Assembly: GCA_947571135.1 (NCBI GenBank)
Contig: CANOWY010000003.1
Span: 11,333 to 75,332 of the forward strand
Source of the DNA: an uncultured Mycoplasmatota bacterium
Lineage (GTDB): Bacteria; Bacillota_I; Bacilli_A; RF39; UBA660
Direction of reading: 5' to 3'
Length of the DNA stretch: 64,000 nucleotides
The notes under the pieces are model-generated. The model had not been told where the DNA came from. It saw nothing but the letters and a program-made list of their open reading frames with translations, and searched no databases. The position numbers were made by a program, and so were the translations under genes. This document shows positions 3,375 to 29,868 of this stretch, piece by piece; positions within the stretch are counted from its first letter, which is position 1; each line of letters begins with the position of its first letter.

Positions 3375-3376
3375 AC

Positions 3377-4093: not shown

Positions 4094-4114
4094 CTTTTGC
4101 CACCTACTTTTCGA

Positions 4115-5212: not shown

Positions 5213-5287
5213 AATTATACTACAAATTAAGAAAACTTATTAGCAAATGTATGGAAAACTGTAAAATAACTACATTCCTAACTTTAT

Positions 5288-7043: not shown

Positions 7044-8036
7044 TTAAATCCAAACCCCATAAGTAATCGCTGCCATAGCAAGCAAGAAACCGATTACCCA
7101 AAATAATTTTACAATATCCGTTTCTGCCCAACCAACTTGTTCAAAGTGATGATGAAGAGGAGCCATTTTAAATATTTTTTTATGAAACTTTCGTATCGCT
7201 ATGATTTGGACAAAACTAGAAATTGTTTCAACAACAAATACACCCCCAACTAATACAAGAGAAAGTTCATGACGCGTTACAATCGCAACAGTTGCCAGAG
7301 CCCCACCTAAAGCGAGGCTTCCTAAATCTCCCATGAAGATTTTAGCAGGATGGGTATTATATAATAAAAATCCCAGTAAACTTCCTACTAAAAGAAAACA
7401 AAATATTGCCACCTCTTCATATCCTTGCATCCACCCTGTATTCCAAGCAATAATTCCAAAAGCCAAAAATGCGATTGCAGAAAGGCCTCCAGCAAGACCA
7501 TCTAGTCCATCTGTAATATTGACAGCATTAGAAGTACCTACTAAAACAAATAAAATAAAGATTCCAAATAACCAGCCCATATCAATACTAATTCCAATAG
7601 AAGTAATCCAAAGAACTGGCTCCCCTCCATTTTTCATAAATACATAAAAGAAGACAAGCGCAATCGCCATTTGTAGTAAGAATTTCGTAGTAATGCTAAT
7701 CCCAGCATTATTTTTAAACTTTATTTTTAAATAATCATCAATAAATCCCAAGAAAGCATAAGCAAGAAAAACAAAAATTAAAATAAATAAATTATGATTC
7801 ATTGTAATACTACCACGAATATAAAGCAAAAATAAGGAAACCAAGACAGGAACAATAAAGATAAAGCCTCCCATTGTTGGTGTCCCATTTTTCTTAAGAT
7901 GTCTTTCTCCAATAGTCAAACTAACATTTTGCCCTAACTTTTCCTTACGAGCAAACTTTACAAAAAAGAAACCAAATATCATGGAGATTACAAACCCTAG
8001 CATAATGGACATCGCTGCTTTTGCTAAAATTAACAT
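7044..8036 (-). CDS. mraY: Phospho-N-acetylmuramoyl-pentapeptide transferase MraY
   Basis: 330 aa with NAVNITDGLDGLAGG and MGDLGSLALGG motifs diagnostic of MraY. Confidence 0.9.
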   Translation of the reverse strand: MLILAKAAMSIMLGFVISMIFGFFFVKFARKEKLGQNVSLTIGERHLKKNGTPTMGGFIFIVPVLVSLFLLYIRGSITMNHNLFILIFVFLAYAFLGFIDDYLKIKFKNNAGISITTKFLLQMAIALVFFYVFMKNGGEPVLWITSIGISIDMGWLFGIFILFVLVGTSNAVNITDGLDGLAGGLSAIAFLAFGIIAWNTGWMQGYEEVAIFCFLLVGSLLGFLLYNTHPAKIFMGDLGSLALGGALATVAIVTRHELSLVLVGGVFVVETISSFVQIIAIRKFHKKIFKMAPLHHHFEQVGWAETDIVKLFWVIGFLLAMAAITYGVWI

Positions 8037-8106
8037 TCACATCACCCCGTATTCAAATTATACAATACTTTTTCTTAAAACGAATTCCAATCCATAAAAA
8101 TTGACA

Positions 8107-10014: not shown

Positions 10015-10354
10015 AATGGTTCTCCTTTATAAAATTGTATTATAAAAATGAAAAATTATGTTTTAAAAAATGGCTACCTCCATTATGAAAAAATTTTTTA
10101 TTTTTTAAATATTTTATAGAGTATACAACTTTTCTTTTGCCAATTTAAAAAATTAAGTATTGAAAATGATAGAATATAACAAAAAAAAATCCTTTTAACA
10201 AGGATTCAATCACACTTATAATATTCTTCACTTTCTTCAAGTCTTCTAGCATACCCTGCCGCAACACAAAAAGAATAAAGAAAGAAAAGATAGCATAACA
10301 AAACACCAATAAAAATATACTTCATAAAAAACAACCAACCTTACTAATCTGTTA

Positions 10355-11098
10355 TTAGTCTTCCCCTAAATACACCTCTATATTCTCATTTTTTAAAACT
10401 TTCAAAGGATTTTCATAAGTGAGTTTTTCAAACTTTTCAATGGTTATTAATTTAATAATCTCTTTTCTTATCTTTTTCATATTTTTAAATAATACATCAT
10501 CACTATGATGAATATCAGTGGCCAAAAAATGGTATTGATTATTCTTTAACATATACAAAAATAAGTGCTTGGCATGTTTCCCATATTTACCTATTATGTT
10601 AGAAAAATTCCCTTGAAATAAACACCCCATTTTTAAAAATTCCTCTATTAATTTATGATTCTCTTGCAAATAAAGATATCTTTCTGGGTGAGCAATAATA
10701 GGAACATAATCTCTACTACGAAGATAAAACAGAAGTTCCAACATTTCTTGCATAGGGCTAGAAACTGGAAGTTCAATTAATAAATAGCGACTCCCATTTA
10801 ATGAAGTAATTTCATTATGACGGAGTAAAGAAAGAATAGCCGTATCAATAAAAATTTCATTCCCTAAATACAAATGTATAGGAATATTCTCATTTTTTAA
10901 ATACTCTTTTAAATTTTCTAATTGCTCATATTTGGCATAATTATTGCAAACGTATTTACTGCCCGTAATATAATGCGGAGTTGCAAGAATATGGGTAATT
11001 CCCAACTTATACATTTTTTTTAGTAACAAAACACTTTCTTCTATACCTCTTGCGCCATCATCAATCCCGCATAGTATATGAGAATGTATATCTATCAT
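10355..11098 (-). CDS. cpsB: PHP-family protein-tyrosine phosphatase CpsB/Wzh
   Basis: 247 aa starting MIDIHSHILCGIDDGA (metal-dependent PHP phosphatase motif). Adjacent to a BY-kinase. Confidence 0.75.
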   Translation of the reverse strand: MIDIHSHILCGIDDGARGIEESVLLLKKMYKLGITHILATPHYITGSKYVCNNYAKYEQLENLKEYLKNENIPIHLYLGNEIFIDTAILSLLRHNEITSLNGSRYLLIELPVSSPMQEMLELLFYLRSRDYVPIIAHPERYLYLQENHKLIEEFLKMGCLFQGNFSNIIGKYGKHAKHLFLYMLKNNQYHFLATDIHHSDDVLFKNMKKIRKEIIKLITIEKFEKLTYENPLKVLKNENIEVYLGED

Positions 11099-11108
11099 TT
11101 AAAACACC

Positions 11109-11777
11109 TTACTCATAATAATTTCCATAATAACTGCCATGTATATCATTTGTACGATTCACAATAATTCCTGCAATATCCGCTCCAACACTCATTAAAC
11201 TTTTCTTAGTAAACTCTAATTCATTAGTTTTGGTTTGATTAACAGAAGATACAATAACAGTTTTATCTACATATTTTGTCAATATAAGAGAGTCCGTAAG
11301 ACCATTTACTGGAGTACCATCTAAAATAATATAATCAAATTTATCTGCTAAAGTTCGCAAAAGAACTTTTGTCTTTGGCGAATTTAATAACTCACTTGGA
11401 TTTGGAGGAACCACACCTTTTGATAATAAATATAAATTTTCAATACGTGTTCTTCTAATATAACTGTTAAAACGCACTTCTACATTTTCAAGTAATAGAT
11501 TAGAAAGACCTTTATCATTTTCAATTTCAAATATTTTATGAAGTCTTCCTTTTCTCATATCACAGTCCATTAACAAGACTTTACTTCCATTTTGAGCAAA
11601 TGCAGTTGCTAAGTTAGTACTAATAAAACTCTTTCCTTCCCCTGGAACAGAAGAAGTCACCAATATAGAACGTACTTTTTTATCAACTCCAGAAAACTCT
11701 AGATTTGTTCTAATAATACGTATGGCCTCTGCAACACTAGATTTCGGATTCTTATCGACAATGATCTCATCTTTCAT
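11109..11777 (-). CDS. cpsD: BY-kinase (capsular tyrosine autokinase) CpsD/Wze
   Basis: 222 aa with Walker A SSVPGEGKSF, Walker A' ILLMDCDMRKG, Walker B IILDGTP and a C-terminal Tyr-rich tail GSYYGNYYE. Confidence 0.8.
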   Translation of the reverse strand: MKDEIIVDKNPKSSVAEAIRIIRTNLEFSGVDKKVRSILVTSSVPGEGKSFISTNLATAFAQNGSKVLLMDCDMRKGRLHKIFEIENDKGLSNLLLENVEVRFNSYIRRTRIENLYLLSKGVVPPNPSELLNSPKTKVLLRTLADKFDYIILDGTPVNGLTDSLILTKYVDKTVIVSSVNQTKTNELEFTKKSLMSVGADIAGIIVNRTNDIHGSYYGNYYE

Positions 11778-12493
11778 TTACGTTTTCCTCCTTTTTTCTT
11801 TTTAGTATAATCTGGTACAGAGCCTAAAATTGTAAGTCCAAACTTTCTTTCTACATCATTAACACTCTTTATCGTAGTATCAAAATAATAGAAAATGAAA
11901 AGTACAAATATAGCAACTGCTACTCCTGCTCCAACATAAAGAATCACTTGTTTAGATATATTAAAATTAGAAGGATAATCTTCAATTTCGGCTGAATCTA
12001 ATATGGAAACATTGGACAAATTATACAAATCTTTTGCTTCTTTACTAAATACTTCCGCTACTTCATTGGCAATGAAATAGGCCTGTTTTGCAGAAGCATC
12101 TGTTACAGAAATCTCAATAATCTCTGTGTCTTTAACTGCGCCTACGTTAATCATTTTCGCAAGTTCGACAGTACCATACTCTAATTTTAAATTTTCAATG
12201 ACTTGATTTAATACTCTTCTACTTTTTACGATTTCTTGATAAGTACTTACTAATTTTGAATTTACAGTTAAATCAGATTGCGTAATACTAGAAGTTTCGC
12301 TACTACTAAATCCAGTTAATATAATACTTGTTTTTGAAGTATATTTAGGTTGTTGTAAAAAAACAGAATACAAACACCCTAAAGTAACAACAAAAGCAAC
12401 AATTGCAAAAAATTGAACACTTTTATTTAGAAAATATGATAATAAATCCTTTATATCAAGTTCTTCCATAACGCCTCTTCCTATTCTATTCAT
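11774..12493 (-). CDS. cpsC: Polysaccharide chain-length regulator / BY-kinase transmembrane activator CpsC/Wzd
   Basis: 239 aa with two TM helices flanking a periplasmic Wzz-like domain and a basic C-tail. There is a 4-nt overlap with the downstream kinase. Confidence 0.65.
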   Translation of the reverse strand: MNRIGRGVMEELDIKDLLSYFLNKSVQFFAIVAFVVTLGCLYSVFLQQPKYTSKTSIILTGFSSSETSSITQSDLTVNSKLVSTYQEIVKSRRVLNQVIENLKLEYGTVELAKMINVGAVKDTEIIEISVTDASAKQAYFIANEVAEVFSKEAKDLYNLSNVSILDSAEIEDYPSNFNISKQVILYVGAGVAVAIFVLFIFYYFDTTIKSVNDVERKFGLTILGSVPDYTKKKKGGKRK

Positions 12494-12552
12494 AATTATA
12501 TCATAAGGAATTTTCTTTGTATAGAAAAAAACCGAAACTTGTCTTTCTGCTT

Positions 12553-13461
12553 TTACTGCTTAATTTTATAAGTTAGTGGGATAATATTTTCACTTCTAAT
12601 AAAGTTTGCAATAAGTTGTTCTTGCTTTTTAGAAATGATAATCCCAATTGTTTTGTTGTGCATTGGTTCTTTTAGTTGCTCATCAATTAATTTCATATAA
12701 AACTCTATTTGGGCTTTATCTTCTTTTCTTAGTTCACGTAATTTTAGTTCTACTGCGAAAAAACAATTCAATTTATAATTAAATAAAAGAATATCAATGT
12801 AATAATTCTTGTTGTTATAACTTATTTTATATTGGTTATCGATTAACGCAAATCCTTCTCCTAGTTGACTAAAAAACATTTGTAATTTCACAAGAATAGT
12901 AATTTCTAAATCACGTTCAGAGGTAATTGCTTTATTCTTTTCAAGTTCAATAATAATAGGATTTTGCATCGTATCCAGAAGGGAGAATCTTTTGGAAGGA
13001 GTTATAATTTCAATTTTATCTGGTTTCTTTATCAATCGTTCATAAGCATTGTTTTTGATTTCTTGTATAAGTTCTCTTTTTGACAAATTCTTTGTTATAC
13101 AGATATTGATATAAAAATTCCTTTTATTTTCATCTTGAATCGGTAATAATTCGCGAATATGACTCCAAGTTAATTGGTGCCCCACTGGTGCACCTTTTTG
13201 AAAACATTGGAAAAATTGTCTAAATCTCTTTAAATTTGTAGCATCATAACCTTTACCATATCTCTCCGTATATTTCATACTCCATTCTTTAATTAAACCA
13301 TTTCCATACTTGGCTCTTTCTTTTCCACCTTGCGCTTCTACTAAGAGTCTTCCTATATTCCAATAGTTTTCTAAAGTACTTTGGTTTTCTTCTAATATTC
13401 TTACTTTTTTACTTACTTCATTCTTTTTTATAAACAATTCAATTTCTGTGTAATAATTCAT
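12553..13461 (-). CDS. DUF1016/YhcG-family PD-(D/E)xK nuclease-like protein
   Basis: 302 aa. The N-terminal part (YWNIGRLLVE...GKGYDATNLKRFRQFF, YhcG N-domain) and a C-terminal PD-(D/E)xK-like core (FALIDNQYKI...IDILLFNYKLNCFFAVELK) match the YhcG family. It is embedded in the cps locus. Confidence 0.6.
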   Translation of the reverse strand: MNYYTEIELFIKKNEVSKKVRILEENQSTLENYWNIGRLLVEAQGGKERAKYGNGLIKEWSMKYTERYGKGYDATNLKRFRQFFQCFQKGAPVGHQLTWSHIRELLPIQDENKRNFYINICITKNLSKRELIQEIKNNAYERLIKKPDKIEIITPSKRFSLLDTMQNPIIIELEKNKAITSERDLEITILVKLQMFFSQLGEGFALIDNQYKISYNNKNYYIDILLFNYKLNCFFAVELKLRELRKEDKAQIEFYMKLIDEQLKEPMHNKTIGIIISKKQEQLIANFIRSENIIPLTYKIKQ

Positions 13462-13533
13462 AATATCCTCCTACTATTATATATACACTGTAAATTGGTA
13501 TTTTCCTTTTTTTAAACAAAAAATACCTTCTTT

Positions 13534-14019
13534 TTATGAAGATATTTTGGCTTTACTTTTTTTCTTATCAAGTATATCCAAAAAAAGAACTCCTACACTT
13601 GCCCCACTTGTATCAATAAATACATCAAAAAATCTTGCAGTACGTTCATTTACAAATAATTGATGGAATTCATCAGTACACGCGTAGAAAAAACAAAACA
13701 ATATAGAATAAAGAAATGCATGTTTTACTTGATAATTTTTTAAAGTTAAAAATACTAAAACGCCAAGCAATAAATATATAATAAAATGTGCCCCTTTTCG
13801 AATCAAAGTCCTTGTATTTACAATATAATCTTCTTTTTCTTGCATAGTTGTCTCTTTCTTTAAGATTTCAGACTTAATTTCTAACGTTTTCTTTGCCACT
13901 TCATCACTTAATCCTTGGCTAGTTTTAGCATTTTGATTAGAAAAGAAAAAGATAGTCGCCATACAAAGAAAGACCAATACAGAAAGTAATATCCTTTTAC
14001 GCTTCATGTAAAACCTCAT
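13534..14019 (-). CDS. VanZ-like membrane protein
   Basis: 161 aa with an N-terminal TM and the VanZ core (CTDEFHQLFVNERTARFFDVFIDTSGASVG). Overlaps the LCP gene end by 23 nt. Confidence 0.6.
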   Translation of the reverse strand: MRFYMKRKRILLSVLVFLCMATIFFFSNQNAKTSQGLSDEVAKKTLEIKSEILKKETTMQEKEDYIVNTRTLIRKGAHFIIYLLLGVLVFLTLKNYQVKHAFLYSILFCFFYACTDEFHQLFVNERTARFFDVFIDTSGASVGVLFLDILDKKKSKAKISS

Positions 14020-15445
14020 TTATTTTTTGTTTTGCAACCTTTACACTATTCATATTAGGCTCCATAACATACAGTTTATATTTTGTTCCCATACTATGAG
14101 TATAGTCCATATTTCCACTTCCTGTTACTGCAAAAGATTCAATTTTCCAAGACGGCATTTTTTCGAGTTGATATTTTATAAATGAAGTAATTTCTTCCAT
14201 AGACATATCCGTTTGGAAAGTTCCATCTAGAGCATTTAAAATACTATTATACTTACTAATTAAAACTGTAGAATTCGTTAACTTCTCTAAAATAGCCGTC
14301 ATGACCTGTTGTTGATTTGCTCCACGATGATGATCTCCTGTCGTATAAGCATAACGTTCCCTAGCGTAGGCTAAAGCAAGTTTTCCGTCAAAATGATTCC
14401 AGCCTTTATTGATGAATCTACTATCGTTTCGAGGTTTGTATGCTAAATCCGAATTAATATCAATTCCTCCAATTACATCTACGACTTTCACAACCGTATT
14501 AAAGTTTACCCTAACATAATGAATAATATCAATTTCATAAAAATTTTCTAATGTCTTAATACTTTTGTCTATTCCATAAATCCCTGCATGAGTTAATTTA
14601 TCTTTTAAACCCGTTGTGCCAGCAAGTTGCACATAATAATCTCTTGGTGTATTTACAAACAAAATATGATGTGTATTTGGGTTTATAATAGCCAGTTGAT
14701 TTACATCACTTCTACCACGAGAACTTACAACGTCTCCCCATTGGTCAATTCCACTAATATAAAGAATAAATGGAGACATAGTAATTTCAGCATTCTCTTT
14801 TGTTTCCTCGTTTTCAATATGTAATTTTTCTTTTATCTCAAAAGTATAAATCACTTTGGTACTATTTTCAAAAGTATCTATCTCATCTTTTAAAATAGTC
14901 AAATAACTATCTTCCAAAACAATAGCGTCGGCTTCCTTTTCTAATAAAGCGTCCACTACACTACCAAATTCATCATTTAATACTTCTTGATACTCTATTT
15001 TACTTTGTAAAATATTTCGAATTTCTTCTTGATAATCATTATTTAAATAGAAAATCGTTTTCTCTTGTAAATCATCCATTTTTTGATAATTCAATTCATT
15101 AAGAACAATAACAGAAAAAGTAAGCGTATCATACTCTTGTTGTGTATTTTCAATAAAAGTATAAGTATTTTTAAGATACACCACCCCAAAACAAAACATA
15201 ACTCCAAAAATGACAAATAATAGAGAAACAATCACTTTTAAGCATTTATTCTTCTTTCTAAACAACAAAAAGATAAATAGTAAAAAGAAAAGAAAAACCG
15301 CAACAAATCCCCCTATTAAAAATTTAAAAGGAACTATGTTTAATTTTAGCAAAAAATAACTAAACCTACCACAACTTCCTAGAAAGAAAATCACAAATAA
15401 AGCACGAAGCAATATAGAAATTTTTTCCATTTTTGTTTTTTTCAC
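13997..15445 (-). CDS. LytR-CpsA-Psr (LCP) family polymer-to-peptidoglycan ligase
   Basis: 482 aa with N-terminal TM helices, an accessory domain and an LCP catalytic region (FVNTPRDYYVQLAGTTGLKDKLTHAGIYG...RERY). Confidence 0.75.
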   Translation of the reverse strand: MKKTKMEKISILLRALFVIFFLGSCGRFSYFLLKLNIVPFKFLIGGFVAVFLFFLLFIFLLFRKKNKCLKVIVSLLFVIFGVMFCFGVVYLKNTYTFIENTQQEYDTLTFSVIVLNELNYQKMDDLQEKTIFYLNNDYQEEIRNILQSKIEYQEVLNDEFGSVVDALLEKEADAIVLEDSYLTILKDEIDTFENSTKVIYTFEIKEKLHIENEETKENAEITMSPFILYISGIDQWGDVVSSRGRSDVNQLAIINPNTHHILFVNTPRDYYVQLAGTTGLKDKLTHAGIYGIDKSIKTLENFYEIDIIHYVRVNFNTVVKVVDVIGGIDINSDLAYKPRNDSRFINKGWNHFDGKLALAYARERYAYTTGDHHRGANQQQVMTAILEKLTNSTVLISKYNSILNALDGTFQTDMSMEEITSFIKYQLEKMPSWKIESFAVTGSGNMDYTHSMGTKYKLYVMEPNMNSVKVAKQKINEVLHEA

Positions 15446-15557
15446 AACTATCCCTCCTTTTTCTCTCCGTTATTCTAGCATATTTTTATATGAATAGATA
15501 GATAAACAGCAAAGCCTTACAGAATTTACTCCAATTCTATCCTTTATTCGGCAATTT

Positions 15558-16934
15558 CTATCTTTTTCTTATAATGTTTTTTATTTCTGCATAACAAGTT
15601 TTTAAAGTAGGATTCATAAAAACAAATAGTAAGAAAATGGTTAAAATTGTATAAAGAATCCCTCCATAAATAGCCCTACAAAAATATCCTGTTGTTAAAA
15701 ATAAAACCAAAATACACAAAATACAAATATAATCTCCACCCTTTAAGCGATATTCTTTAAAATGAAACTCTCCGATAACAAACCACAAAATATTAGTAAA
15801 CAAAGTAGCAATAGCAAAAGACTCTATTGTTTTAGATATAGCATAACACAAAAAATTCATGCCAAGAGAAAATAAAATGATAAATCCCATAATTCCAAAA
15901 TATTGATTTTGTTTTTTATTTGCTTTATACAAATTGGTATGTATACAACGAATAATAATAGAAACAACTTGAGAAGAAAAAAGTATAAATACAACATAAG
16001 AAGCCTCTTGGTATTTATCTAACCATATTTCAACTATAAATTGTATTGGATACACTAAAAAAATCATAAGAAAGGACAAAATCAACATAACCCTTTTGAT
16101 CAATACTATTTTCGTTTTATCGTTATTTTTACATAAATAATTGTACATCACAACACTTAAAGGACTAACAATTGTATTCATTAAATTCTCTAAACTAACA
16201 GCAAAAGAATAATAGGCAAAACGAACAATTCCTAAAAAATGATTTACTAACAAACGATCAAGACTTGTAAAAATTACATTGGAAAAATTCCCGAGCATTA
16301 AAAAAAATCCTTCTTTAATATTATTTTTTAAATAAGAAAATTGAAAAGAAGATTTGACTTTGCCAAATAAGGTATTCACTTCTAATTCTAAAAGGAGCCA
16401 ATAAACAAAATAAAATAAAATGTATCCTAAAATATAATAATTTGCATTGTCTGTTTTTATAATAAACAATAGAAAGAAATTCACAAAAAACGTAAACAAA
16501 GTATTTAAATTTGTAAATTTAGCATATTTGTCAAATTTTCCAGTGGCTTGATATAAATTTCTTAAATAATTGCCTATATTGATAGGTAAAATCGATAAAG
16601 AACAATAAAATAAAATAGAATTTTTAAGAAGAATGCTAATAAAAAGGCAAATAACTGTAACAAAGAATTGAAATATTTTAAATGTTTTAAATTCATATTT
16701 TACTTCAGAATTATTAATACACTGAATCTCTTTTCCACCATATTTTAAATACATTCCGTCTGAAAAACCTAAATGTAAAATTCCTATATAAGCAATATAC
16801 AATTGAAATAATTTAATATTGGAATAAGAATCAATCGATAACATCTTAGGTAAAACAAAACCTGTTATTACACTGATTATTAATCCCAACATATTTGCTA
16901 AAAAAACATAAACAAAACCTTTTTTTAAACTCAT
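15558..16934 (-). CDS. wzx: Wzx-type polysaccharide flippase (MOP superfamily)
   Basis: 458 aa, about 12-14 predicted TM helices, typical Wzx size and topology inside the cps locus. Confidence 0.6.
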   Translation of the reverse strand: MSLKKGFVYVFLANMLGLIISVITGFVLPKMLSIDSYSNIKLFQLYIAYIGILHLGFSDGMYLKYGGKEIQCINNSEVKYEFKTFKIFQFFVTVICLFISILLKNSILFYCSLSILPINIGNYLRNLYQATGKFDKYAKFTNLNTLFTFFVNFFLLFIIKTDNANYYILGYILFYFVYWLLLELEVNTLFGKVKSSFQFSYLKNNIKEGFFLMLGNFSNVIFTSLDRLLVNHFLGIVRFAYYSFAVSLENLMNTIVSPLSVVMYNYLCKNNDKTKIVLIKRVMLILSFLMIFLVYPIQFIVEIWLDKYQEASYVVFILFSSQVVSIIIRCIHTNLYKANKKQNQYFGIMGFIILFSLGMNFLCYAISKTIESFAIATLFTNILWFVIGEFHFKEYRLKGGDYICILCILVLFLTTGYFCRAIYGGILYTILTIFLLFVFMNPTLKTCYAEIKNIIRKR

Positions 16935-16938
16935 TTAA

Positions 16939-17799
16939 TCACTTACTTTCAAAAAACCTTTTTATCCAATTTTCATAATCATAATACTCTATAATTTCTT
17001 TAGAAATTTTTACACAAGGTTTTTTTAGAAAAGTGGGAAGTTTATCTAAAGAGTCTTCCCCTATAATAAAGATATTGTTTTTGTTATAAAATGAATAATT
17101 TTTAATATCTGCATTATTTGTAATTAATTTTTTTTCCAAAAATAAAGCCTCCATTGTACGTAATGTAAGTCCAGTTTGACCAGGTGCTAAAATATCTAAT
17201 AAACTTTTACTTTCGCTTACAATTTCTAAATAATCTTTATAAGAAATAAAGTCCGATTCCTTCTTTATTACTATTAATTTACTATGAAGATGAAGTCTTC
17301 TAAAAGAATTATCCATTTCATCTATACAATTTGCCCTTCCCTTGTCTCGTCCTAAAAACAGGATATCATACTTTAAATTCTTCTTTATTGGTTGCACTTG
17401 ATAGGTATAAAATTGAGGATTCCATTGAAGATGATATTTTTCAGAATCCTTTTTATCAAAAGTCCAAATTTCACTAATGTACGAATCATTAAGAATCCAG
17501 TGGTTATACTCCCCGATAACATTCCAATAATAAAATATAATTTTACAGTTCGGATTTTTCTTTTTTATATATTTAGAAATATTTGTTCTATACAAAGTAT
17601 CAAAAATAATAACACAATCTATATTTTTTATTCTTTTTGTCCAATTTCCAAAAAGAAGATAATTCATTTTTAATTTAGAAAATACTTTTAAAATCAATTT
17701 AGGAATTTTTTCTCTATAAAATCCATATATTTCTTTTTCACTTAATTGTGGAAAAAAAATAGTGAAAATATCATACCTTAAAATTATATACTTTTTCAT
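16939..17799 (-). CDS. Putative capsule-biosynthesis transferase (GT-B-like C-terminal motif)
   Basis: 286 aa soluble protein. LAPGQTGLTLRTMEALFLEKKLITNN resembles the GT-B C-terminal nucleotide-sugar-binding motif. The exact family is not recognised. Confidence 0.3.
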   Translation of the reverse strand: MKKYIILRYDIFTIFFPQLSEKEIYGFYREKIPKLILKVFSKLKMNYLLFGNWTKRIKNIDCVIIFDTLYRTNISKYIKKKNPNCKIIFYYWNVIGEYNHWILNDSYISEIWTFDKKDSEKYHLQWNPQFYTYQVQPIKKNLKYDILFLGRDKGRANCIDEMDNSFRRLHLHSKLIVIKKESDFISYKDYLEIVSESKSLLDILAPGQTGLTLRTMEALFLEKKLITNNADIKNYSFYNKNNIFIIGEDSLDKLPTFLKKPCVKISKEIIEYYDYENWIKRFFESK

Positions 17800-17901
17800 G
17801 TTTTATCCTTTCAACCTACTAACATTTCTTATTTTGACTACATTCTATCAAAAGACTGCATTTTTTAGATATTGGCTAACTATTTTTTACGACCGAGATA
17901 A

Positions 17902-18813
17902 TTAATTTTCTCCCCTATGATTTTTATGTATTATAATTTTAGGATTTTGAAAAATATTATTTCCTAAGGTTGTAATTTGCTTTACTTGGATGTTCTTTTT
18001 CCAAAGAACAAAAGGAAGCGAAATTTGATCTCGTAAACTAGAAGTATTTAATAATTCCAAAAACCATGCCTTTAATATTTCTATTGCCATTTTATTATGT
18101 AAATCTGAAACAATCATACCACACTCTGCCATACCATATTTTTTAGGAAATCCCTCCTTTTTATATTGTTCTATTTGACCTTGCAATAGTTTTTGATTTC
18201 CTTTTTTTAAAATTTTACAGGCTTCATATTCATCATAAATACAATGACGAAAACGATGTGTATGTAAAGCAATTCCAAGAGGGCCAACGCTATGAATTAA
18301 AGTAGAAAGATCTGAGATTATTTGCACACTTCCATCTACATAAATAGCATAGTCATACTCTTTAAATAACAAGGATGGATTTAATTTATAAAAACGATTT
18401 AAAAGGGTACCATTGCTTTTATACTTTTCCATTATTTCTTTCGGAATCACTTGAACGTTCCATTTTTCACTTTTTAGATTCCCGTCATCTGTAAAAAGAA
18501 TATAATCACAATTTGGCACTTTTAATAAAGGTTCTCTTACCTGATCGTAATTTCCTGTAATACACGTATATATGACTATTTTCTTATCCAACACTGGAAT
18601 ATTTTGAATATTGTACTTTGTTGGTTCACTGTTTTCATATTTTCTTATTTTATTATGAATCATTATCTTTTTTAAAATCGTAAAAATTTTACCTCGTTTG
18701 ATTAAATTTTTAAATTCCAATAATTTGGCTCCTACTCTATATTCTTTGGAATATAAAATAGCATTGTACTCTGTCACAATTTCTTCTAATGCTTCCATAA
18801 TCTCTTTATTCAT
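17902..18813 (-). CDS. DUF616-type (TOD1/MUCI70-like) putative glycosyltransferase
   Basis: 303 aa with an ITGNYDQV...ILFTDD...YVDGSV pattern. I recall this family from streptococcal cps loci, from memory only. Confidence 0.35.
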   Translation of the reverse strand: MNKEIMEALEEIVTEYNAILYSKEYRVGAKLLEFKNLIKRGKIFTILKKIMIHNKIRKYENSEPTKYNIQNIPVLDKKIVIYTCITGNYDQVREPLLKVPNCDYILFTDDGNLKSEKWNVQVIPKEIMEKYKSNGTLLNRFYKLNPSLLFKEYDYAIYVDGSVQIISDLSTLIHSVGPLGIALHTHRFRHCIYDEYEACKILKKGNQKLLQGQIEQYKKEGFPKKYGMAECGMIVSDLHNKMAIEILKAWFLELLNTSSLRDQISLPFVLWKKNIQVKQITTLGNNIFQNPKIIIHKNHRGEN

Positions 18814-18828
18814 AAAAAAGAACTCCTT

Positions 18829-19890
18829 CTAATTAAAAATACTTACATACGGTACTAGGGAACTATTATAAACGGTAAAGTTTAAAAAATAAAGAATAAA
18901 ACAAAGTCCTAAAACCGAGTAATAGATTCTTTTATTATTTTTATATTTTGAATATTCTATGGCATTTGGTAAACTAGCACATAAAAATACCCCGAAATAG
19001 AAACTAATACGAATCATTTCCCCTAAAACTGGTGTTAATGCTGCAAAACACACACACAAAAATTGTAGGTTCAAAAGAATTCGATTTTCAAATTCGTTCT
19101 TTTTTTCTTTAAATAAATATAACATAAAAAGATACAATAAAAAATTAATAGCAAAAAAGACTAAACTCATAGATTTTCCAATAGTAAGATAGTTAGAAAA
19201 ATGCCCCGAATCAAAAATAGAAAAAATGAAAGTAAAAATAAATTCTCTAAGTAATGTAGAACATAATAAAATCAATAACATTAAGAAAGTCTGCTTCCAA
19301 CCAATTTTAAAATGAACAACAGGATAAGCAATTAAAAAGACTAATGCTGTACGGTGAAACAATGTGGCTAGTAAAACACAAAGTATAAAAGGCATTGCCC
19401 TTTTTTGTTTCAAATAATCATAACTAAAAACCAAAACACTTGCCGCCAAAGTATGTCGCAACGCTGAAAAACTAAAACAATAGTAATTTAAAGAAAGGAA
19501 AACCAAATAACTTAATAACGGATTTTTAGAATACTTGTAAATAAAGCGACTTACTACCAATACATAAGGAATCGACATAATAGTCAAATAAAAATGAATA
19601 TTCTTACTAAACAAAGAGATAATTTTATTTAAAAGATAAAATAGCACCTCCGTTTGGTGGTTTTGAGTAAATTGAATGGTTTCTGCAAAAGATAAGTTTT
19701 TAATAATATTAAAATAAGGAATATAAAGTCCTTGTAAATCAACTCCCATTGAAGTGTCACGTAAAGCAAGCATTAAAAATAAAATAATTCCAATAAAAAT
19801 ACAATATTTTTTTTTATAATTTTTAAAATTCCTCTTCATGATAAAATAAGATATTACTACAATGAATACTAAAATAAGATAAGGTACCAC
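18829..19890 (-). CDS. wzy: Wzy-type (EpsG-family) polysaccharide polymerase
   Basis: 353 aa, about 10-11 TM helices with a large loop. Placed between glycosyltransferases and the flippase. Confidence 0.5.
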   Translation of the reverse strand: MVPYLILVFIVVISYFIMKRNFKNYKKKYCIFIGIILFLMLALRDTSMGVDLQGLYIPYFNIIKNLSFAETIQFTQNHQTEVLFYLLNKIISLFSKNIHFYLTIMSIPYVLVVSRFIYKYSKNPLLSYLVFLSLNYYCFSFSALRHTLAASVLVFSYDYLKQKRAMPFILCVLLATLFHRTALVFLIAYPVVHFKIGWKQTFLMLLILLCSTLLREFIFTFIFSIFDSGHFSNYLTIGKSMSLVFFAINFLLYLFMLYLFKEKKNEFENRILLNLQFLCVCFAALTPVLGEMIRISFYFGVFLCASLPNAIEYSKYKNNKRIYYSVLGLCFILYFLNFTVYNSSLVPYVSIFN

Positions 19891-19915
19891 TCTAAACCAC
19901 CTCTTTTTATTCCAT

Positions 19916-20635
19916 TTAATTCTTTTTTATTCTTTTCCAAAATTCTCTTATTAAAGATACTCTATTTTGAATCATTTTCAGTAAAGGATAATGATGCATA
20001 GCAGAAACATTTCCATAATGTCTACGATATTTTATTAATTTTTCTTTCATAAAATAGACACTTCCATATTTTTCACACAATAACCCTATCCATTGGTCGT
20101 GCATTTCAATTGTTTCTGGGATTGGTAAAATAGACTTTGCCATATCTTTAGAAAATGCCATACAACATCCCAGATATCTATTTTTGTATATATTCCTTAT
20201 TATACCAGATTTTGATTTACGATGTTCAAAAAACGAATCCATTAAATTTTGGGTTGTATCTTCATTCACAACAATACAATCATGTACTATACCTGTACAT
20301 TGTCTTTCCTCCAAAACTTCTAAAACTTTAGAAACTTTATTTTCTAACCATATATCATCTTGATCAGATAAAAAAATATACTTTCCACTACAATTTGCAA
20401 TTGCATTAGCAAAATTTTGCTTTACTCCTTTTTTAGGACCTTCTATTATTTTAATTCGACTATCACAAAATGATTTTATTATAGTAAGAGTATTATCTAT
20501 TGATCCATCATCCGAAATAATGATTTCATCATTCTCTTTTAAATTTTTTAAAATAGACGTAATTTGTTCTTTTATAAATCTTTCTCCATTATAAGTTGCC
20601 ATAGCAACAGATATAAAAAAATCTCTATCCTGCAT
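19916..20635 (-). CDS. Family 2 glycosyltransferase
   Basis: 239 aa with a FISVAMATYNGERFIKEQI...IISDDGSIDNT GT-A signature and a DxD (DQDD). Confidence 0.7.
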   Translation of the reverse strand: MQDRDFFISVAMATYNGERFIKEQITSILKNLKENDEIIISDDGSIDNTLTIIKSFCDSRIKIIEGPKKGVKQNFANAIANCSGKYIFLSDQDDIWLENKVSKVLEVLEERQCTGIVHDCIVVNEDTTQNLMDSFFEHRKSKSGIIRNIYKNRYLGCCMAFSKDMAKSILPIPETIEMHDQWIGLLCEKYGSVYFMKEKLIKYRRHYGNVSAMHHYPLLKMIQNRVSLIREFWKRIKKN

Positions 20636-20643
20636 ATATCTCC

Positions 20644-21894
20644 CTACTTTACTAATTTTTTTATTTCGTTTCTATATTTTTCGATTGATTTTTCTTTCGT
20701 AAAATTTTCTTCTAAATATTTTCTTCCCATCATATGTTTCTTAACAAATTGTTCCTTTTCGAAAATTATTTGTCTTAATTTTTCCTCAATCTCACTATAA
20801 TTTCCAGTTTCTGCTGTCACTCCACAATTTGATTTTTCAATAATATTCCACGCTTCTGTTCCAGGTTCTAGAATACCAAAAACGGGCACGTTTGAGGCTA
20901 GACAACCATAGATTTTACTAGGAACGGATACCCCTTTAATTCCTTTAGCATTTGTAACTAAATGCACATCCGCCGCATTCAAACTATAAATCAAATCCTT
21001 TTTATCTTGATAAGGGATAAACGTAATATTTTTCAAATTCTCTTCATTACAAAACTTTACAAGATTCTCTTTAATAGAACCTTCTCCAACAAAAGCAAAA
21101 ATAATATTATTTTCTTCTTTAAATTTTGCAATTATTTTTATTATATTTTCTAAATCATAATATAATCCAATATTTCCAGAATACATGATAACAAATTTAT
21201 TATCTAAATGGTATTTTTTTCTAAACTGCAGCACTTGAGTGTGATTCTTTTCTAAAGGATAAATTTCTTGTTCATTTATCCAATTATTAATCACAACATT
21301 ATAAGGAATTTTTTTATTTTTAAAACGATTTTCTAATGTTTTTTGCATATCCATTCCTACTGTCACTACTAAATCTGCTCTTTTACAAGAATGTTTATCC
21401 AGCCAAAAAAGTACTTTTAAAAGGAACTTATTTTTAGAATATTTTATGGCCATGATTTGTTCTGGATTAAAATCTTGAATATTGTAAATCAATTTCCCTT
21501 TCGTTAGCAAACGTCCCAAATTTCCTAAAATTCCTCCTAATATTGGAGGTTGTGATATAGTATACACAATATCTTGTTTTCCAACTTTACAAGTTGCTAA
21601 AAGGGAATTTAGAAAATAACTGGTTATGTGAAAAATTCTACTTTTTTTATTTTTTTTATTAAAATCACGTACACGTACTCTTATAATTCTGATTCCCTCA
21701 AATTCTTCCTCATAAAACCTTTTCGTTTTGTATTCTGATGCTATATTTCCTGTATAACAAGGAACAGAGCATATTACTGTAATAAGAAAATCATTCTGTA
21801 ACCCTTGGCATAACTCCGTTAATATTTGCGCCGTAGAAGCAACTTCTGGATAAAAATAATTTGCATACACTAACATCTTCTTCTTTTTTTCCAT
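20644..21894 (-). CDS. Family 4 (GT-B) glycosyltransferase
   Basis: 416 aa. The C-terminal half carries the GT4 pattern (FAFVGEGSIKENL...PYQDKKDL...ADVHLVTNAKGIKGVSVPSKIYGCLASNVPV). Confidence 0.7.
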   Translation of the reverse strand: MEKKKKMLVYANYFYPEVASTAQILTELCQGLQNDFLITVICSVPCYTGNIASEYKTKRFYEEEFEGIRIIRVRVRDFNKKNKKSRIFHITSYFLNSLLATCKVGKQDIVYTISQPPILGGILGNLGRLLTKGKLIYNIQDFNPEQIMAIKYSKNKFLLKVLFWLDKHSCKRADLVVTVGMDMQKTLENRFKNKKIPYNVVINNWINEQEIYPLEKNHTQVLQFRKKYHLDNKFVIMYSGNIGLYYDLENIIKIIAKFKEENNIIFAFVGEGSIKENLVKFCNEENLKNITFIPYQDKKDLIYSLNAADVHLVTNAKGIKGVSVPSKIYGCLASNVPVFGILEPGTEAWNIIEKSNCGVTAETGNYSEIEEKLRQIIFEKEQFVKKHMMGRKYLEENFTKEKSIEKYRNEIKKLVK

Positions 21895-21992
21895 TTATCT
21901 GTCACTCCCTCACATAAAAAAATAACTATACTGCTATTTTACATATATAGTTATCATATCATATTTTTACTCTTATTTTTATCCTAAATTGA

Positions 21993-22691
21993 TTATTCTG
22001 CACCATCTTTTTTAAATACTTGTACGATAGTTTTCCAAATAATTTCTAAATCCTTTTTAAAACTAAGATGCAAACTATAATTTTTTTCCAAAATCAAACG
22101 CTTCTGGAAAGTTGTATTGCTTCTTCCACTAACTTGCCAAATACCAGTTAAACCTGGCTTAGTAGAAGTGATAATTCTAAAGTAGCCTCCCATATCTTCT
22201 TTTTCAATGGGAAGATATGGGCGATTTCCTACTAAACTCATATCTCCTAAAAGTACGTTAATAAATTGTGGAACTTCATCTAAAGAAGTTTTTCTTAAAA
22301 ACCTTCCTACTTTTGTAATTCTTGGATCGTTCTTTACTTTTTTGTTTTTAAAATATTCATTTCTAAATTCTGGGTTTTTGCGCATTAATTCTACTAAAAC
22401 TTCATCAGCATTTGGAACCATGGTTCTAAATTTATACATATAAAAATTTTTACCATTTTTTCCTATTCTTTTTTGTTTATAAAAAATACTATGATAATCT
22501 CTATTGTAAAGAGAGATTGCTTTTATTATAAAAGCAAGTGGTAACATCATAAGTATTCCAAAAAAACCACAGAAAATATCAAAAGCACGTTTTACTTTGA
22601 AATACAAAGCATGGCTTACACTTGTGCTTACTTTTAAACTACTTTCTAACATCACACTATTGGTATTCATATAACCTTCTCCTTCAAACAA
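21993..22691 (-). CDS. Undecaprenyl-phosphate sugar phosphotransferase (Bac_transf, short PglC/WbaP-C type), the priming enzyme. The likely true start is at the second Met (MNTNS...).
   Basis: 232 aa with one N-terminal TM and motifs KFRTM, GLTGIWQVSGRS and DEVPQFINVLLGDMSLVGNRP. It is the first gene of the minus-strand cps operon. Confidence 0.8.
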   Translation of the reverse strand: MFEGEGYMNTNSVMLESSLKVSTSVSHALYFKVKRAFDIFCGFFGILMMLPLAFIIKAISLYNRDYHSIFYKQKRIGKNGKNFYMYKFRTMVPNADEVLVELMRKNPEFRNEYFKNKKVKNDPRITKVGRFLRKTSLDEVPQFINVLLGDMSLVGNRPYLPIEKEDMGGYFRIITSTKPGLTGIWQVSGRSNTTFQKRLILEKNYSLHLSFKKDLEIIWKTIVQVFKKDGAE

Positions 22692-22835
22692 TTTTTATCC
22701 CCCTGTTTTCTATTATCACTATTATAAAACATTTTTATAAATTTGACTATTAGTATAACATAAATTTTACAAAAATCCATAAAAACATGGCTTTTTTCGC
22801 TAAAAAATACTACCCAATTTCTGACAAAAAAACAA

Positions 22836-23132
22836 TTAGTCTTCACTAACTGCTTCTTTTGCTAGTTCTTTAAATAAGTCAAAAAATAATCTTCCTACTT
22901 CTTTAAGTTCATTTTCTTCTGTCACTTTTTCGATAGCCTCTTCGCCATCTTTTAAAACATATCTTGCTATCATTTGGTTACTTTCTATCAAATTTTCTTC
23001 TTTATCTACTTCTATTAAATAAAGATAAGTTGTATTGTTATAGTCTAACATATTGGCAATTGTATAATCTTTATCTCCATTCCCATCTTCACTTTCGATA
23101 GTTAATATTTTATATAGTTCTAATTTTTCCAT
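22836..23132 (-). CDS. DUF1292 (YrzB-like) small acidic protein
   Basis: 98 aa: MEKLELYKILTIESEDGNGDKDYTIANMLDYNNTTYLYLIEVD... matches the DUF1292 pattern. Confidence 0.55.
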   Translation of the reverse strand: MEKLELYKILTIESEDGNGDKDYTIANMLDYNNTTYLYLIEVDKEENLIESNQMIARYVLKDGEEAIEKVTEENELKEVGRLFFDLFKELAKEAVSED

Positions 23133-23133
23133 A

Positions 23134-25749
23134 TTATCTTCCTCTTCCTTCTGAAAGTTCTATGTCTTCACTATTGTAGAATCCTTCATATCCTTTTTCA
23201 TCCGCATTTTCATTCATAGCAAGTACACCTACTTGTTCTGCACCATTTGCTTCTATCGCTGCCTTTTTAGCCTTAGCGTCTTCTTCTGTTTCATAAATTG
23301 TTAAAACAGTTCCATTATATTCATAAACAATCCCCGCAACATCTCTTATGCTACTTTCTTCAAAATAAGGAGAAACACCATTTTGTTCGTTTGCAGCATG
23401 TACATCTTGTGTATACACATCTGCTCCCTCTTTGATAACAAAAGTATCATCAAATCCTACATTAGTATTCATTAAGCCATCCCATACTGGAGCATAATCA
23501 AGTTCATCTTTTTCTTTTCTGTCTTGGATATTCTCTTGTTTCTCCGTTACATTCTCCCGTTTATTATTTTCCGCATGAGTTTCATGTAATGCCTTAAGTC
23601 TTGTTTCATCAGCACTTATTTTATCCCCCATAGCAACTTCTTGAACTGAAGTTTTGTTCTCTTCCTCTATTTTTTCTAAAATTAGAGCATCTGTTTCTAA
23701 AACGGTTCCAGTAGCACTTGCATTTTTGGCCAACACTTCTTGGTCTATTACAGTTTCTATATGTTCGTTTGCTTCCACTAAAGGAACATCTTTAAAATCT
23801 TTTAATGAACCGATTCCGACAATGGTAGCAACCCCTACTGCAGCAGTTGTAACGGCAAACGCCAACCTTTTAGGATTTTGGGCAACACGACTATTCTTAA
23901 TTTTTAAAACATTTTGCAGATTCTTAGGAAGTAAATTTAAACATCTATGTACTTTCTCTACTTGATTAGAAATAATAGTTTTAAAACCTACTTTTTCTCT
24001 TTGCTTAACTTCTCTTTTTTCTTTTAACGACTCTAAATATTGATTGGCTTTAGAAAGAATTTCAGAAAAAACCTTTCTTTTTTCTTCTACTTCATATTCA
24101 TCAGAATTTAAAAATTTTTCTGGATATTCTGCGACTAAAGAAGTAAAATCATAAAGATCAACGCCTAAGTGTGTGGCTCTAAACATGACTTTTAAATTGG
24201 CAAGCAAAGCAAATCTTTTCCCTTTATTCAAATTATATAAGGTTCTTTTTAATTTCTTGATATTATGAAGTACTTCCTCTGTTTGATTTTCTTTATACAA
24301 ATCACTTAGTTGATTAAATATTTTCTTTTCAGCCTCTTCAATACTTTCTAACTTAACATCACTATCAATAATTTCAATATTGTTTTCAACGGCATACGCT
24401 TGTAATTCACGTTGTAATCTCTTATAATTCATAAAAATTTTATTAAATTGTTCTAAATGTCTTTTTAAAACGTAAAGGGGTTCTCCATTAATAGTCGCGA
24501 CTGCCATTACTTCATCTTTCGCAGAACGATTTACTACTTGGCTTGCTAAATGAAATAAATCTTGTTTTACATTTTTAAAATCAGCGTAAAGATCGGAATA
24601 CTTCATTTCTTGTTGTGTTGTATCTACCATGTCACTTGGCATATATCCTTCTTTTTCTTTTTCATACTGACGTTTTAATTTTTGCAATCTTCCTGTATAT
24701 CTAATAAAAAGTTCTCTATATTTTTTAGGGATTTCTACAATTTTTCCCTTATATTTCATACAAGTTTTTCTTCCCTTTAACTCGCCTTTTGCATTTAAAG
24801 TAAGAATATTTGCAATAATAAGACTTAAATAATCAATTTTATCTGTAAGAGAAAGTGTTTTAAAAAATTCTTCATCAACAATTACAGTATCTTCTTTAAC
24901 ATTAATTTTATTACTTTGTTCTTCTTTTATACTGTCTTCTACAACTTGAGAACTTTCAAAAGAAGGAACTATTTCCTTGACAAACTGAAGATTCTTTTCG
25001 TAGGCAGAAACTAGATTTTCTTCCTGCTGAATAGGAATCTCTGCTTCTTCCATATCAAAAAAATAATCTAGGGCACTTATAGTTTCATTTCTTAGCATTT
25101 CTATTTTTTGATTAATATCTTGAGATACATGTTTCAAATTTTGTGATATTTCATCATCAATTCTCTCAGTAGCACTCCCTAATTCTTCAATTTTATTCAT
25201 TGCATCCAAAGTATCTTGACTAAAATGTAAATTATCTCTTATCTTGACTTGTTCTAACATTTCGTTGTATTCTTTGGTTTGCAATATAGAATTATAAGTA
25301 TTTGCACTATTTGGATTGGATTTTAATCCTTTTTCATATAAGCGATTCATTTCAGCATCTATCATTTTTGCTTTTAAAGTAAGTAAGTTATATTCTTTTA
25401 AAATAGTAATAAGATAACCCCACTCTTTTTGAATCTCTTTCTCAGGAACAAAATGAATTACCCTATGATAGTGTTTTAAATTTTTTAATAAAATAGAAAG
25501 AAATTTAAAAAATTCCATTTCCTCTTTTAAACGTTCTTCCAATATTTTTCTTGAAATAGAATTAATGATTCCAGAACAAATAGAATCATATTCTTGCTTA
25601 AAATATCTTGTCGTTTCACAAACACGACCAAAATCAGGAAAATTTTTTACCACTATCTTTCCACTTATTATATCTTCTTTAAAATTTCTCAAGCCATCTT
25701 GGAACTCTGCTACTCTTTTATTATAAACGTCTTGGTTCATAACAAACAC
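23134..25749 (-). CDS. Large bitopic membrane protein of unknown function: about 630-aa cytoplasmic coiled-coil-rich region, one TM, about 230-aa extracellular C-terminus
   Basis: 871 aa. Single hydrophobic segment RLAFAVTTAAVGVATIVGIGSL around residue 630. No family recognised. Directly downstream of pbpB. Confidence 0.6.
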   Translation of the reverse strand: MFVMNQDVYNKRVAEFQDGLRNFKEDIISGKIVVKNFPDFGRVCETTRYFKQEYDSICSGIINSISRKILEERLKEEMEFFKFLSILLKNLKHYHRVIHFVPEKEIQKEWGYLITILKEYNLLTLKAKMIDAEMNRLYEKGLKSNPNSANTYNSILQTKEYNEMLEQVKIRDNLHFSQDTLDAMNKIEELGSATERIDDEISQNLKHVSQDINQKIEMLRNETISALDYFFDMEEAEIPIQQEENLVSAYEKNLQFVKEIVPSFESSQVVEDSIKEEQSNKINVKEDTVIVDEEFFKTLSLTDKIDYLSLIIANILTLNAKGELKGRKTCMKYKGKIVEIPKKYRELFIRYTGRLQKLKRQYEKEKEGYMPSDMVDTTQQEMKYSDLYADFKNVKQDLFHLASQVVNRSAKDEVMAVATINGEPLYVLKRHLEQFNKIFMNYKRLQRELQAYAVENNIEIIDSDVKLESIEEAEKKIFNQLSDLYKENQTEEVLHNIKKLKRTLYNLNKGKRFALLANLKVMFRATHLGVDLYDFTSLVAEYPEKFLNSDEYEVEEKRKVFSEILSKANQYLESLKEKREVKQREKVGFKTIISNQVEKVHRCLNLLPKNLQNVLKIKNSRVAQNPKRLAFAVTTAAVGVATIVGIGSLKDFKDVPLVEANEHIETVIDQEVLAKNASATGTVLETDALILEKIEEENKTSVQEVAMGDKISADETRLKALHETHAENNKRENVTEKQENIQDRKEKDELDYAPVWDGLMNTNVGFDDTFVIKEGADVYTQDVHAANEQNGVSPYFEESSIRDVAGIVYEYNGTVLTIYETEEDAKAKKAAIEANGAEQVGVLAMNENADEKGYEGFYNSEDIELSEGRGR

Positions 25750-25821
25750 TTCCTCTTTTATTATTTTTTATTATAACCGATTATCCTGAAAACTGCAAAT
25801 GATTTCGTATTCCTGAATTTT

Positions 25822-25847
25822 CTTAAAAAAGCACGTGAATACGTACT
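25822..25847 (-). terminator. Intrinsic terminator after pbpB
   Basis: Minus-strand RNA AAAAGUACGUAUUCACGUGCUUUUUU: a 6-bp stem (one G-U) plus U6, starting 7 nt after the stop codon. Confidence 0.4.
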
Positions 25848-25853
25848 TTTCTT

Positions 25854-27956: not shown

Positions 27957-27971
27957 AAATAATCTCCTCTT

Positions 27972-29845: not shown

Positions 29846-29868
29846 TGTAAAAAGAGCCCTTAGGCTCT
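29846..29868 (-). terminator. Intrinsic terminator overlapping the efp stop codon
   Basis: agagcc-ctta-ggctct hairpin (29853-29868), followed on the minus strand by UUUUU. Confidence 0.45.

Follow-up and report, generated by a model that had tools for sequence, protein, structure and literature searches.

How does a capsule-type polysaccharide locus come to lie in the middle of a division and cell wall (dcw) gene cluster, and does its position there carry functional meaning? The question is raised by a 64-kb, low-GC (about 29%) stretch of DNA from an uncultured Mycoplasmatota bacterium (contig CANOWY010000003.1), referred to as the window throughout, in which 15.8 kb separates pbpB, the gene of a class-B penicillin-binding protein (bPBP), from spoVD. 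An FtsI-like bPBP gene and spoVD adjoin in sporulating Bacilli (PMC10693644), and the separation of the two genes by a complete polysaccharide locus, as opposed to their adjacency in Bacillus, was already pointed out in a preliminary description of this DNA and is borne out by that study and the window map.

We favour, at a probability of roughly three in four, that the locus represents a capsule-type island, old and subject to recombination, at an operon boundary that tolerates insertions, the position being a historical accident kept as neutral rather than a sign of regulatory coupling. The dcw cluster of the lineage would then comprise two modules with separate transcription, mraZ-rsmH-ftsL-pbpB and spoVD-mraY-spoVE-murG-divIB, and where they meet there would be a permissive slot that gathers accessory, mostly cell-surface, genes. 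In the genus of the window, the slot would start with u871, encoding an 871-aa protein, and a gene for a small DUF1292 protein, followed in many species by an orthologous Wzx/Wzy operon. The ends of this island (the promoter and Bac_transf at one side, LCP-VanZ-CpsCDB at the other) would be kept, with the middle being swapped between species and the island as a whole being losable.

The gene order from pbpB to spoVD is u871, DUF1292, Bac_transf, GT4, GT2, EpsG/Wzy, TOD1/DUF616, a 286-aa open reading frame (ORF), Wzx, LCP, VanZ, a nuclease, CpsC, CpsD and CpsB, and all family-assigned genes from rpsB (642-1589) to efp (29860-30420) are located on the minus strand, as are the island promoter region, the two hairpins and the spoVD motif detailed below. 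The ORFs, families and gene order initially described were confirmed in place, and the same arrangement recurs in 10 independent assemblies, 99.3-99.98% identical over up to 18 kb. These same-species assemblies, found by exact-sequence look-up of the DUF1292 protein, come from different runs, and all ten cover the DUF1292-Bac_transf junction. At the opposite end, the cpsB-spoVD junction recurs in five other species (loci L001-L005).

Filled, empty and otherwise occupied sites

For comparison, we exploited 80 related genome loci (L-numbers) recovered with SpoVD, onto which the window proteins were mapped by tblastn and phmmer; leftover ORFs were clustered and the recurrent ones annotated with Pfam. 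All loci represent uncultured gut metagenome-assembled genomes of mouse, rabbit, chicken and human origin, which carry the labels Bacilli, Tenericutes or Erysipelotrichaceae and include Ca. Ventrenecus, Ca. Caccenecus and Ca. Coprovivens, the last of which has been assigned to the order RF39 (PMC8035907). The synteny comparison proposed in the preliminary description gave a divided outcome: none of the 12 colinear loci has pbpB directly beside spoVD, all 12 holding at least 1.2 kb of cargo between them, and the island is shared by some relatives, not by all.

An empty site, mraZ-rsmH-ftsL-pbpB-u871-DUF1292-spoVD, is present in L012, L018 and L093, where the gap between DUF1292 and spoVD amounts to 60-110 bp. 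L014 and L017 add an LCP gene only, and L007 hosts an ABC transporter in the slot. As u871 and DUF1292 are thus present in relatives without polysaccharide genes (L012, L018, L093, L017, L014 and L007), the island proper is delimited to 10015-22835, a complete Wzx/Wzy-type polysaccharide operon of 12.8 kb, and the two genes are conserved cluster residents in this genus, outside the island. Indeed, u871 is found between pbpB and DUF1292 in L012, L017, L018, L093, L095 and L096, and DUF1292 is always paired with u871, forming the upstream border of the island. The insertion of about 16 kb claimed at first was therefore overestimated in extent, the portion at 10015-22835 being the part that stands. 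In L093, we also observed that the spoVD homologue (6445-8112; 93% amino acid identity) is shortened to 555 aa with its PASTA end lost, and is followed by unrelated small genes including one for an HTH_17 protein, which could reflect a mobile insertion or a chimeric contig.

Among the filled sites, L091, L095, L097, L098 and L099 carry a Bac_transf orthologue (70-97% identical) right after DUF1292, and differ from the window in island gene content. The sister taxon L091 displays the layout of the window with one extra ATP-grasp gene. L095, on the same contig as L002, provides a second species with an island bounded by DUF1292 and spoVD, in the order mraZ...DUF1292-Bac_transf-GT4-GT2-EpsG-TOD1-ATPgrasp-...-sortase-...-VanZ-cpsCDB-spoVD. 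In L097, L098 and L099, DUF1292-Bac_transf is followed by quite different glycosyltransferase (GT), Wzy and Wzx sets; since no overlaps joining L097 to L010, or L098/L099 to L008, were found, these species do not figure among those with an island delimited at both ends. At the spoVD end, L001, L002, L003 and L005 have cpsD next to spoVD, with an identity of 92-97%, and the middle genes of the island are 54-73% identical or replaced across relatives. Conserved ends with a variable middle are a hallmark of capsule loci that diversify by recombination, and recombination through the conserved flanks may have operated here in analogy with streptococcal capsule loci. As a separate observation, L008, L010, L011 and L013 possess two tandem cpsC-D-B sets before spoVD, one near that of the window (cpsD 81-90% identical) and the other distant (57-59%).

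Beyond these islands, an LCP-VanZ pair or LCP alone is located upstream of spoVD in L005, L010, L011, L014, L017, L022, L024, L033 and L069. The slot otherwise holds a SpaA-type pilin and a sortase (L036), an unknown protein and CobW (L034), a pseudopilin-like protein (L075 and L080), or an AMP-ligase and a hybrid histidine kinase (L057), and in L016 a bacteriocin exporter precedes spoVD. In L006, L020, L021, L069, L070, L096 and L008/L098, the two modules are inverted or separated. In L096 (10298-20297; DUF1292 75% identical), DUF1292 is followed by helD, dnaE and polC, which are found at 44-56 kb in the window; the breakpoint of this rearrangement is exactly at the island site, and an IS110-family transposase is located beside mraZ. 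Filled and empty states are interleaved in a neighbour-joining tree of SpoVD, which points to repeated loss or gain: the window and L001-L005 have filled sites, unlike the sister group formed by L012, L007 and L006.

Transcription signals and predicted pathway

The pbpB gene is followed by a terminator-like hairpin with a U-run (25819-25852), the hairpin proper spanning 25825-25852, at -12.2 kcal/mol and z = -4.06, with 0 of 200 shuffles folding as well, congruent with the terminator noted in the preliminary description. A promoter scan detected a sigma-A-like promoter before u871 (25770-25799). The island in turn possesses a conserved promoter region (22712-22800) with two sigma-A-like promoters, TAGACT-16-TGTTATACT and TAGTCA-17-TATAAT (22721-22749). 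In an alignment of six species (the window, L091, L095, L097, L098 and L099), a stretch of about 75 nt before Bac_transf hardly varies, a conservation that exceeds that of the flanking coding sequence, DUF1292 being only 66-92% identical there. At the other end, a 39-aa ORF is succeeded by an operon-end hairpin with a T-run (10181-10207; centroid -7.8 kcal/mol, z = -2.7).

A bipartite motif, ACATAAT-13 nt-AATACAAT (10034-10061), then precedes spoVD, and presumably it corresponds to a sigma-E-like promoter, considering its resemblance to the sigma-E consensus of B. subtilis. In the form (A/G)CATAA-13/14 nt-(C/A)ATAnA.T, the motif occurs before spoVD in the window and about 20 relatives, no relative examined being without it, and within the 90 nt examined it keeps a constant distance from the spoVD ATG whatever genes lie upstream. 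The signals fit separate transcription units with spoVD placed under sporulation control, and with such an organization the site upstream of spoVD would form a natural operon boundary where insertions are harmless. The coupling of capsule and division expression considered previously was thus not supported at the transcript level, as the island owns a conserved promoter and a terminator, pbpB is followed by a terminator, spoVD is preceded by its own motif, and unrelated cargo takes the place of the island elsewhere.

By family membership, the island would encode a standard Wzx/Wzy pathway, yielding a polymer that is ligated to peptidoglycan by LCP. Bac_transf (21993-22691; PF02397, 202 bits, full-length match; start at ATG 22670 according to gene callers, 225 aa) is the predicted initiating phosphoglycosyl transferase and would prime undecaprenyl phosphate. 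The variable middle (15558-21894), delineated by Pfam matches from GT4 to Wzx, would provide the repeat unit, built by GT4 (20644-21894), GT2 (19916-20635), a TOD1/DUF616 GT-like protein (17902-18813) and probably the 286-aa protein (16939-17799). The latter is without family, having no match in Pfam or among PDB sequences, and the label 'GT-B-like' it first received could not be sustained. Next, the unit would be flipped across the membrane by the candidate Wzx (15558-16934), which scores 20.8 bits against PF01943, under the cut-off of 28.2 (E = 2.8e-4), and whose L091 orthologue, 78% identical, has PF01943 on record. Polymerization would be accomplished by EpsG/Wzy (18829-19890; PF14897, 161.5 bits against a cut-off of 30.1).

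Regulation would be exerted by CpsC/Wzd (11774-12493; PF02706), the bacterial tyrosine kinase (BY-kinase) CpsD/Wze (11109-11777; AAA_31/ParA P-loop families) and the PHP-type phosphatase CpsB (10355-11098; PF19567). The CpsD motifs were read directly, with a Walker A GEGKS, LLMDCD, ILDGTP and the C-terminal tyrosine cluster GSYYGNYYE, and the Walker motifs and tyrosine cluster are those of BY-kinases. Finally, the LCP (LytR-CpsA-Psr) ligase (13997-15445; PF03816, 111 bits) would join the polymer to peptidoglycan. No sugar-nucleotide synthesis genes were found in the island, and hence common UDP-sugars are presumably used.

Three further genes were missed in the original gene list, which apart from the 'GT-B-like' label was right in the families it named. 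A VanZ-like membrane protein is encoded at 13534-14019 (PF04892, 84.8 bits), and a lipoprotein-like protein of 39 aa, with a lipobox-like ...YSFC motif, at 10206-10325 between cpsB and spoVD, as detected by alignment and kept in the five species of L001-L005. The third is a DUF1016/YhcG PD-(D/E)XK nuclease (12553-13461; PF17761 and PF06250) between VanZ and cpsC, present in every same-species assembly that reaches this region. In L002 and L005, about 100 bp separate VanZ from cpsC and the nuclease is absent between them, so that this gene is probably a secondary insertion, a later lodger in the island. An apparent within-species polymorphism of the nuclease was rejected, as it arose from truncated locus ends: all assemblies match the window to 12836.

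Age of the island and alternative explanations

The island is old and not a recent insertion, because its promoter, Bac_transf and cpsCDB ends are shared by several species and because the GC content at third codon positions (GC3; 0.15-0.24) and the codon-usage distance are within the range of core genes. The composition check suggested for a foreign origin hence turned out negative. The total GC of Wzx, the 286-aa ORF and EpsG is lower (0.23-0.26 against 0.30-0.34 in the flanks), which fits the amino acid composition of membrane proteins. Integrase, recombinase or transposase families were not found among the ORFs of 10-26 kb, where the DUF1016/YhcG protein is the sole nuclease, and flanking direct repeats were limited to short AT-rich chance repeats. 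No tRNA or Rfam element was detected in the block, the only tRNA of the window being located at 33470-33546. The lineage-specific insertion put forward in the preliminary description therefore agrees with the filled and empty sites among close relatives, though not in the sense of a recent event. The same text had set such an insertion against a lineage-wide layout of comparable composition, and it is the latter that largely applies, with the limit that not all relatives share the island.

Several observations weigh against a neutral, separately transcribed island. Gain and loss cannot be polarized from a single-gene neighbour-joining tree, and polysaccharide, LCP or VanZ genes recur before spoVD in the distant L022, L024, L033, L067 and L069, a recurrence that could reflect selection for linkage, not neutrality. 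A terminator between DUF1292 and the island could not be recognized (z = -0.8). With all genes on a single strand and hairpins that would count as weak in E. coli, read-through from dcw promoters is possible. The polymer is a prediction from its genes. Furthermore, L008/L098, a single contig of 66,317 bp, has cpsCDB-spoVD (at about 18 kb) and mraZ...DUF1292-Bac_transf (45-62 kb) about 30 kb apart and in swapped order, an arrangement that could stem from a genuine translocation through the island or else from misassembly at the duplicated cpsCDB sets.

The explanation that survives best next to the one we favour, unlikely as we consider it, is functional co-location, in which selection would favour linkage to the peptidoglycan synthases of septum and spore cortex, or co-transcription with them in part. 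The polymer would then act as the chief secondary wall polymer of a lineage for which standard teichoic-acid pathways are predicted to be missing. RF39 and related orders are indeed predicted to lack standard synthesis of wall and lipoteichoic acids, with most RF39 species predicted to retain peptidoglycan and sporulation (PMC10868615), and considering this predicted lack in these orders the polymer may have such a role, which would be the strongest argument for a functional link to the cell-wall genes. The single strand, the short intergenic distances and the absence of a clear terminator between DUF1292 and the island are congruent with this explanation, LCP alone is kept beside spoVD in L014 and L017, LCP-VanZ or cps genes precede spoVD in several deeper relatives, and most of the other slot cargo is surface-related (pilin with sortase, pseudopilin-like). 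In S. pneumoniae, moreover, divisome-associated proteins act through CpsC/D to draw the capsular polysaccharide machinery to the septum (PMC10233549). That coupling is however one of protein localization and does not require gene linkage. Against selection for the position, the island owns a conserved promoter and terminator, the close relatives L012, L018 and L093 have empty sites, unrelated cargo such as CobW, the AMP-ligase with histidine kinase or the bacteriocin exporter is found elsewhere, and the linkage is lost in L020, L021, L069, L070 and L096, where the modules are rearranged.

A bolder and less probable extension of this idea takes the pbpB/spoVD boundary as a selected docking site for surface modules, be it LCP-attached polysaccharide, pilin with sortase or pseudopilin-like proteins. 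In that case u871, with its conserved domain outside the membrane, and DUF1292 would be new, fast-evolving divisome- or wall-associated proteins, tying attachment of surface polymers to septal or cortex peptidoglycan synthesis in bacteria without standard teichoic acids.

A recent horizontal gain of a foreign capsule island by the species of the window is very improbable. The low total GC of Wzx, the 286-aa ORF and EpsG, the absence of the island from close relatives such as L012 and L093, and the DUF1016/YhcG gene inside it, belonging to a nuclease family often seen in mobile DNA, are what such an event might leave behind. The core-like GC3 and codon usage, the several species sharing the island with orthologous promoter, Bac_transf and cpsCDB, and the lack of an integrase, transposase, tRNA or direct repeat however argue for the opposite. 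An assembly or binning artefact fusing two unrelated contigs is practically inconceivable, for even though all relatives are metagenome-assembled genomes and L008/L098 shows a suspicious island split, the 10 independent assemblies agree and the cpsB-spoVD junction is repeated in L001-L005.

Resident proteins, flanking modules and known systems

Turning to the two residents upstream of the island, u871 (23134-25749, minus strand) encodes a protein with a single predicted membrane span, for which no Pfam, NCBIfam or PDB match was found. AlphaFold suggests a helical cytoplasmic N-terminal part (residues about 1-600), a transmembrane helix (about 626-649), a disordered linker and a folded C-terminal domain (762-868). 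This domain has a confident alpha/beta model (predicted local distance difference test score of 83 when modelled alone), without significant match among PDB structures. A full HMMER scan of 1.84 billion proteins recovered about 98 cluster representatives of u871, and the C-terminal domain, roughly 105 aa (FGDTF...YEYNG...DAEAKK...NGA...GYEGYYN), is reused in about 50 shorter proteins. The protein diverges unusually fast, being 28-34% identical where the adjoining PBP is 72-77% and DUF1292 69-75% identical. The DUF1292 protein (22836-23132, minus strand; PF06949 weak, E = 4.7e-4) has 61 homologues, and a scan of metagenome contigs with it returned one short contig only. The fixed place of u871 beside pbpB suggests an envelope role, and this lineage-restricted protein represents, along with DUF1292, a modest lead for new cell-envelope proteins.

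The proximal dcw module (25854-29637, minus strand) was assigned by Pfam and NCBIfam matches and comprises mraZ (29200-29637), rsmH (28277-29209), ftsL (27972-28277) and pbpB (25854-27956), a PBP2x/FtsI-like bPBP with two PASTA stretches in Pfam. It is kept as a block in L012, L017, L018, L034, L036, L057, L075 and L080. In the distal module (3377-10014, minus strand), assigned analogously, spoVD (8107-10014) exceeds the cut-off of the TIGR02214 equivalog model (729 against 688 bits) and is followed by mraY (7044-8036), a decayed remnant, spoVE (5288-6379), whose SEDS product satisfies the SpoVE model, murG (4115-5212) and a divIB-like gene with a POTRA domain (3377-4093), after which queH and rpsB are located. 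The canonical elements of the Bacilli cluster are thus present, mraZ-rsmH-ftsL-bPBP at the 5' end and mraY, SEDS, murG and divIB downstream.

The remnant occupies the gap between mraY and spoVE (6380-7043), previously described as holding only tiny ORFs, in agreement with the broken frames observed here. The gap is only 112-136 bp in the closest relatives (L001 and L005). In L010, the region that follows mraY (13019-13368), itself decayed, resembles the remnant weakly at both the DNA and the protein level; a frame-joined translation of the remnant gave no Pfam match. Family searches detected neither ftsA-ftsZ nor any Mur ligase gene, murE and murD included, in the cluster or the whole window. 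The absence of murE and murD from their slots had been noted before, and it is real, yet not peculiar to this genome: spoVD is directly before mraY, without murE or murD beside them, in nearly all 80 related loci, and the missing murE is thus a property of the lineage. In L098, a Mur ligase gene (2168-3562) is located immediately upstream of mraZ, which indicates that Mur ligase genes left their canonical slots in the lineage. The remaining window genes are housekeeping (polA, polC, dnaE, fpg, helD, pknB, rlmN and fmt). We also observed, at 39882-41147, a class-I glutamine amidotransferase-like domain fused to a VanY/LdcB-type D,D- or L,D-carboxypeptidase domain.

Compared to a B. subtilis-type dcw cluster, the window shares the mraZ-rsmH-ftsL-bPBP start, a second bPBP that scores as SpoVD, mraY, a SEDS protein that scores as SpoVE, murG and divIB, all in the canonical relative order. 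It differs in the 15.8 kb between the two bPBP genes, which in none of the related loci directly adjoin, and in that murE, murD and murB, which belong to the cluster order of B. subtilis, are lacking along with ftsA-ftsZ. The result is mainly descriptive, the locus being a typical capsule-type island in a lineage-specific variable slot of an eroded dcw cluster and no new type of system. What it does show is the 'most conserved' bacterial gene cluster broken in two in poorly known gut Bacilli, with a hypervariable polysaccharide island in the break, which is readily usable as a marker of serotype-like diversity among them. It also calls for caution, as a gene neighbourhood inside dcw is not evidence of a division function.

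The eps/cps loci of lactic acid bacteria (EpsA-D or Wzd-Wze-Wzh) employ the same families, i.e. LCP, a Wzz-domain modulator, a BY-kinase with a C-terminal tyrosine cluster, PHP phosphatase, Bac_transf, GTs, Wzy and, as a candidate in the window, Wzx, and presumably the same mechanism. In the window, however, the order is permuted, VanZ and the DUF1016 nuclease are embedded, and the 39-aa ORF closes the operon.

The cps locus of S. pneumoniae is likewise Wzx/Wzy-dependent, with CpsB/C/D tyrosine-phosphoregulation, an LCP protein, PBP genes nearby and conserved ends around a variable middle, which is serotype-variable there. The recombination at the flanks observed in the pneumococcus is deduced in the lineage of the window. 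The pneumococcal locus resides between dexB and aliA, whereas the window island is flanked by DUF1292 and spoVD, and the placement of the primer 5' and of LCP/CpsC/D/B 3' is the reverse of cpsABCD-E; moreover, the window island has no sugar-nucleotide synthesis genes. In S. pneumoniae, pbp2x, in a dcw fragment, is about 8 kb upstream of the locus and pbp1a about 7 kb downstream, and these are co-transferred with it (PMC3537446). The window island is instead found directly between two bPBPs of the dcw cluster itself, with a tighter linkage, at a distance of 340 bp to spoVD and of 3.2 kb to the PBP2x-like gene. It thereby joins the pneumococcal locus as a second case of genetic linkage between capsule and PBP genes, a linkage by which both could be co-transferred by recombination.

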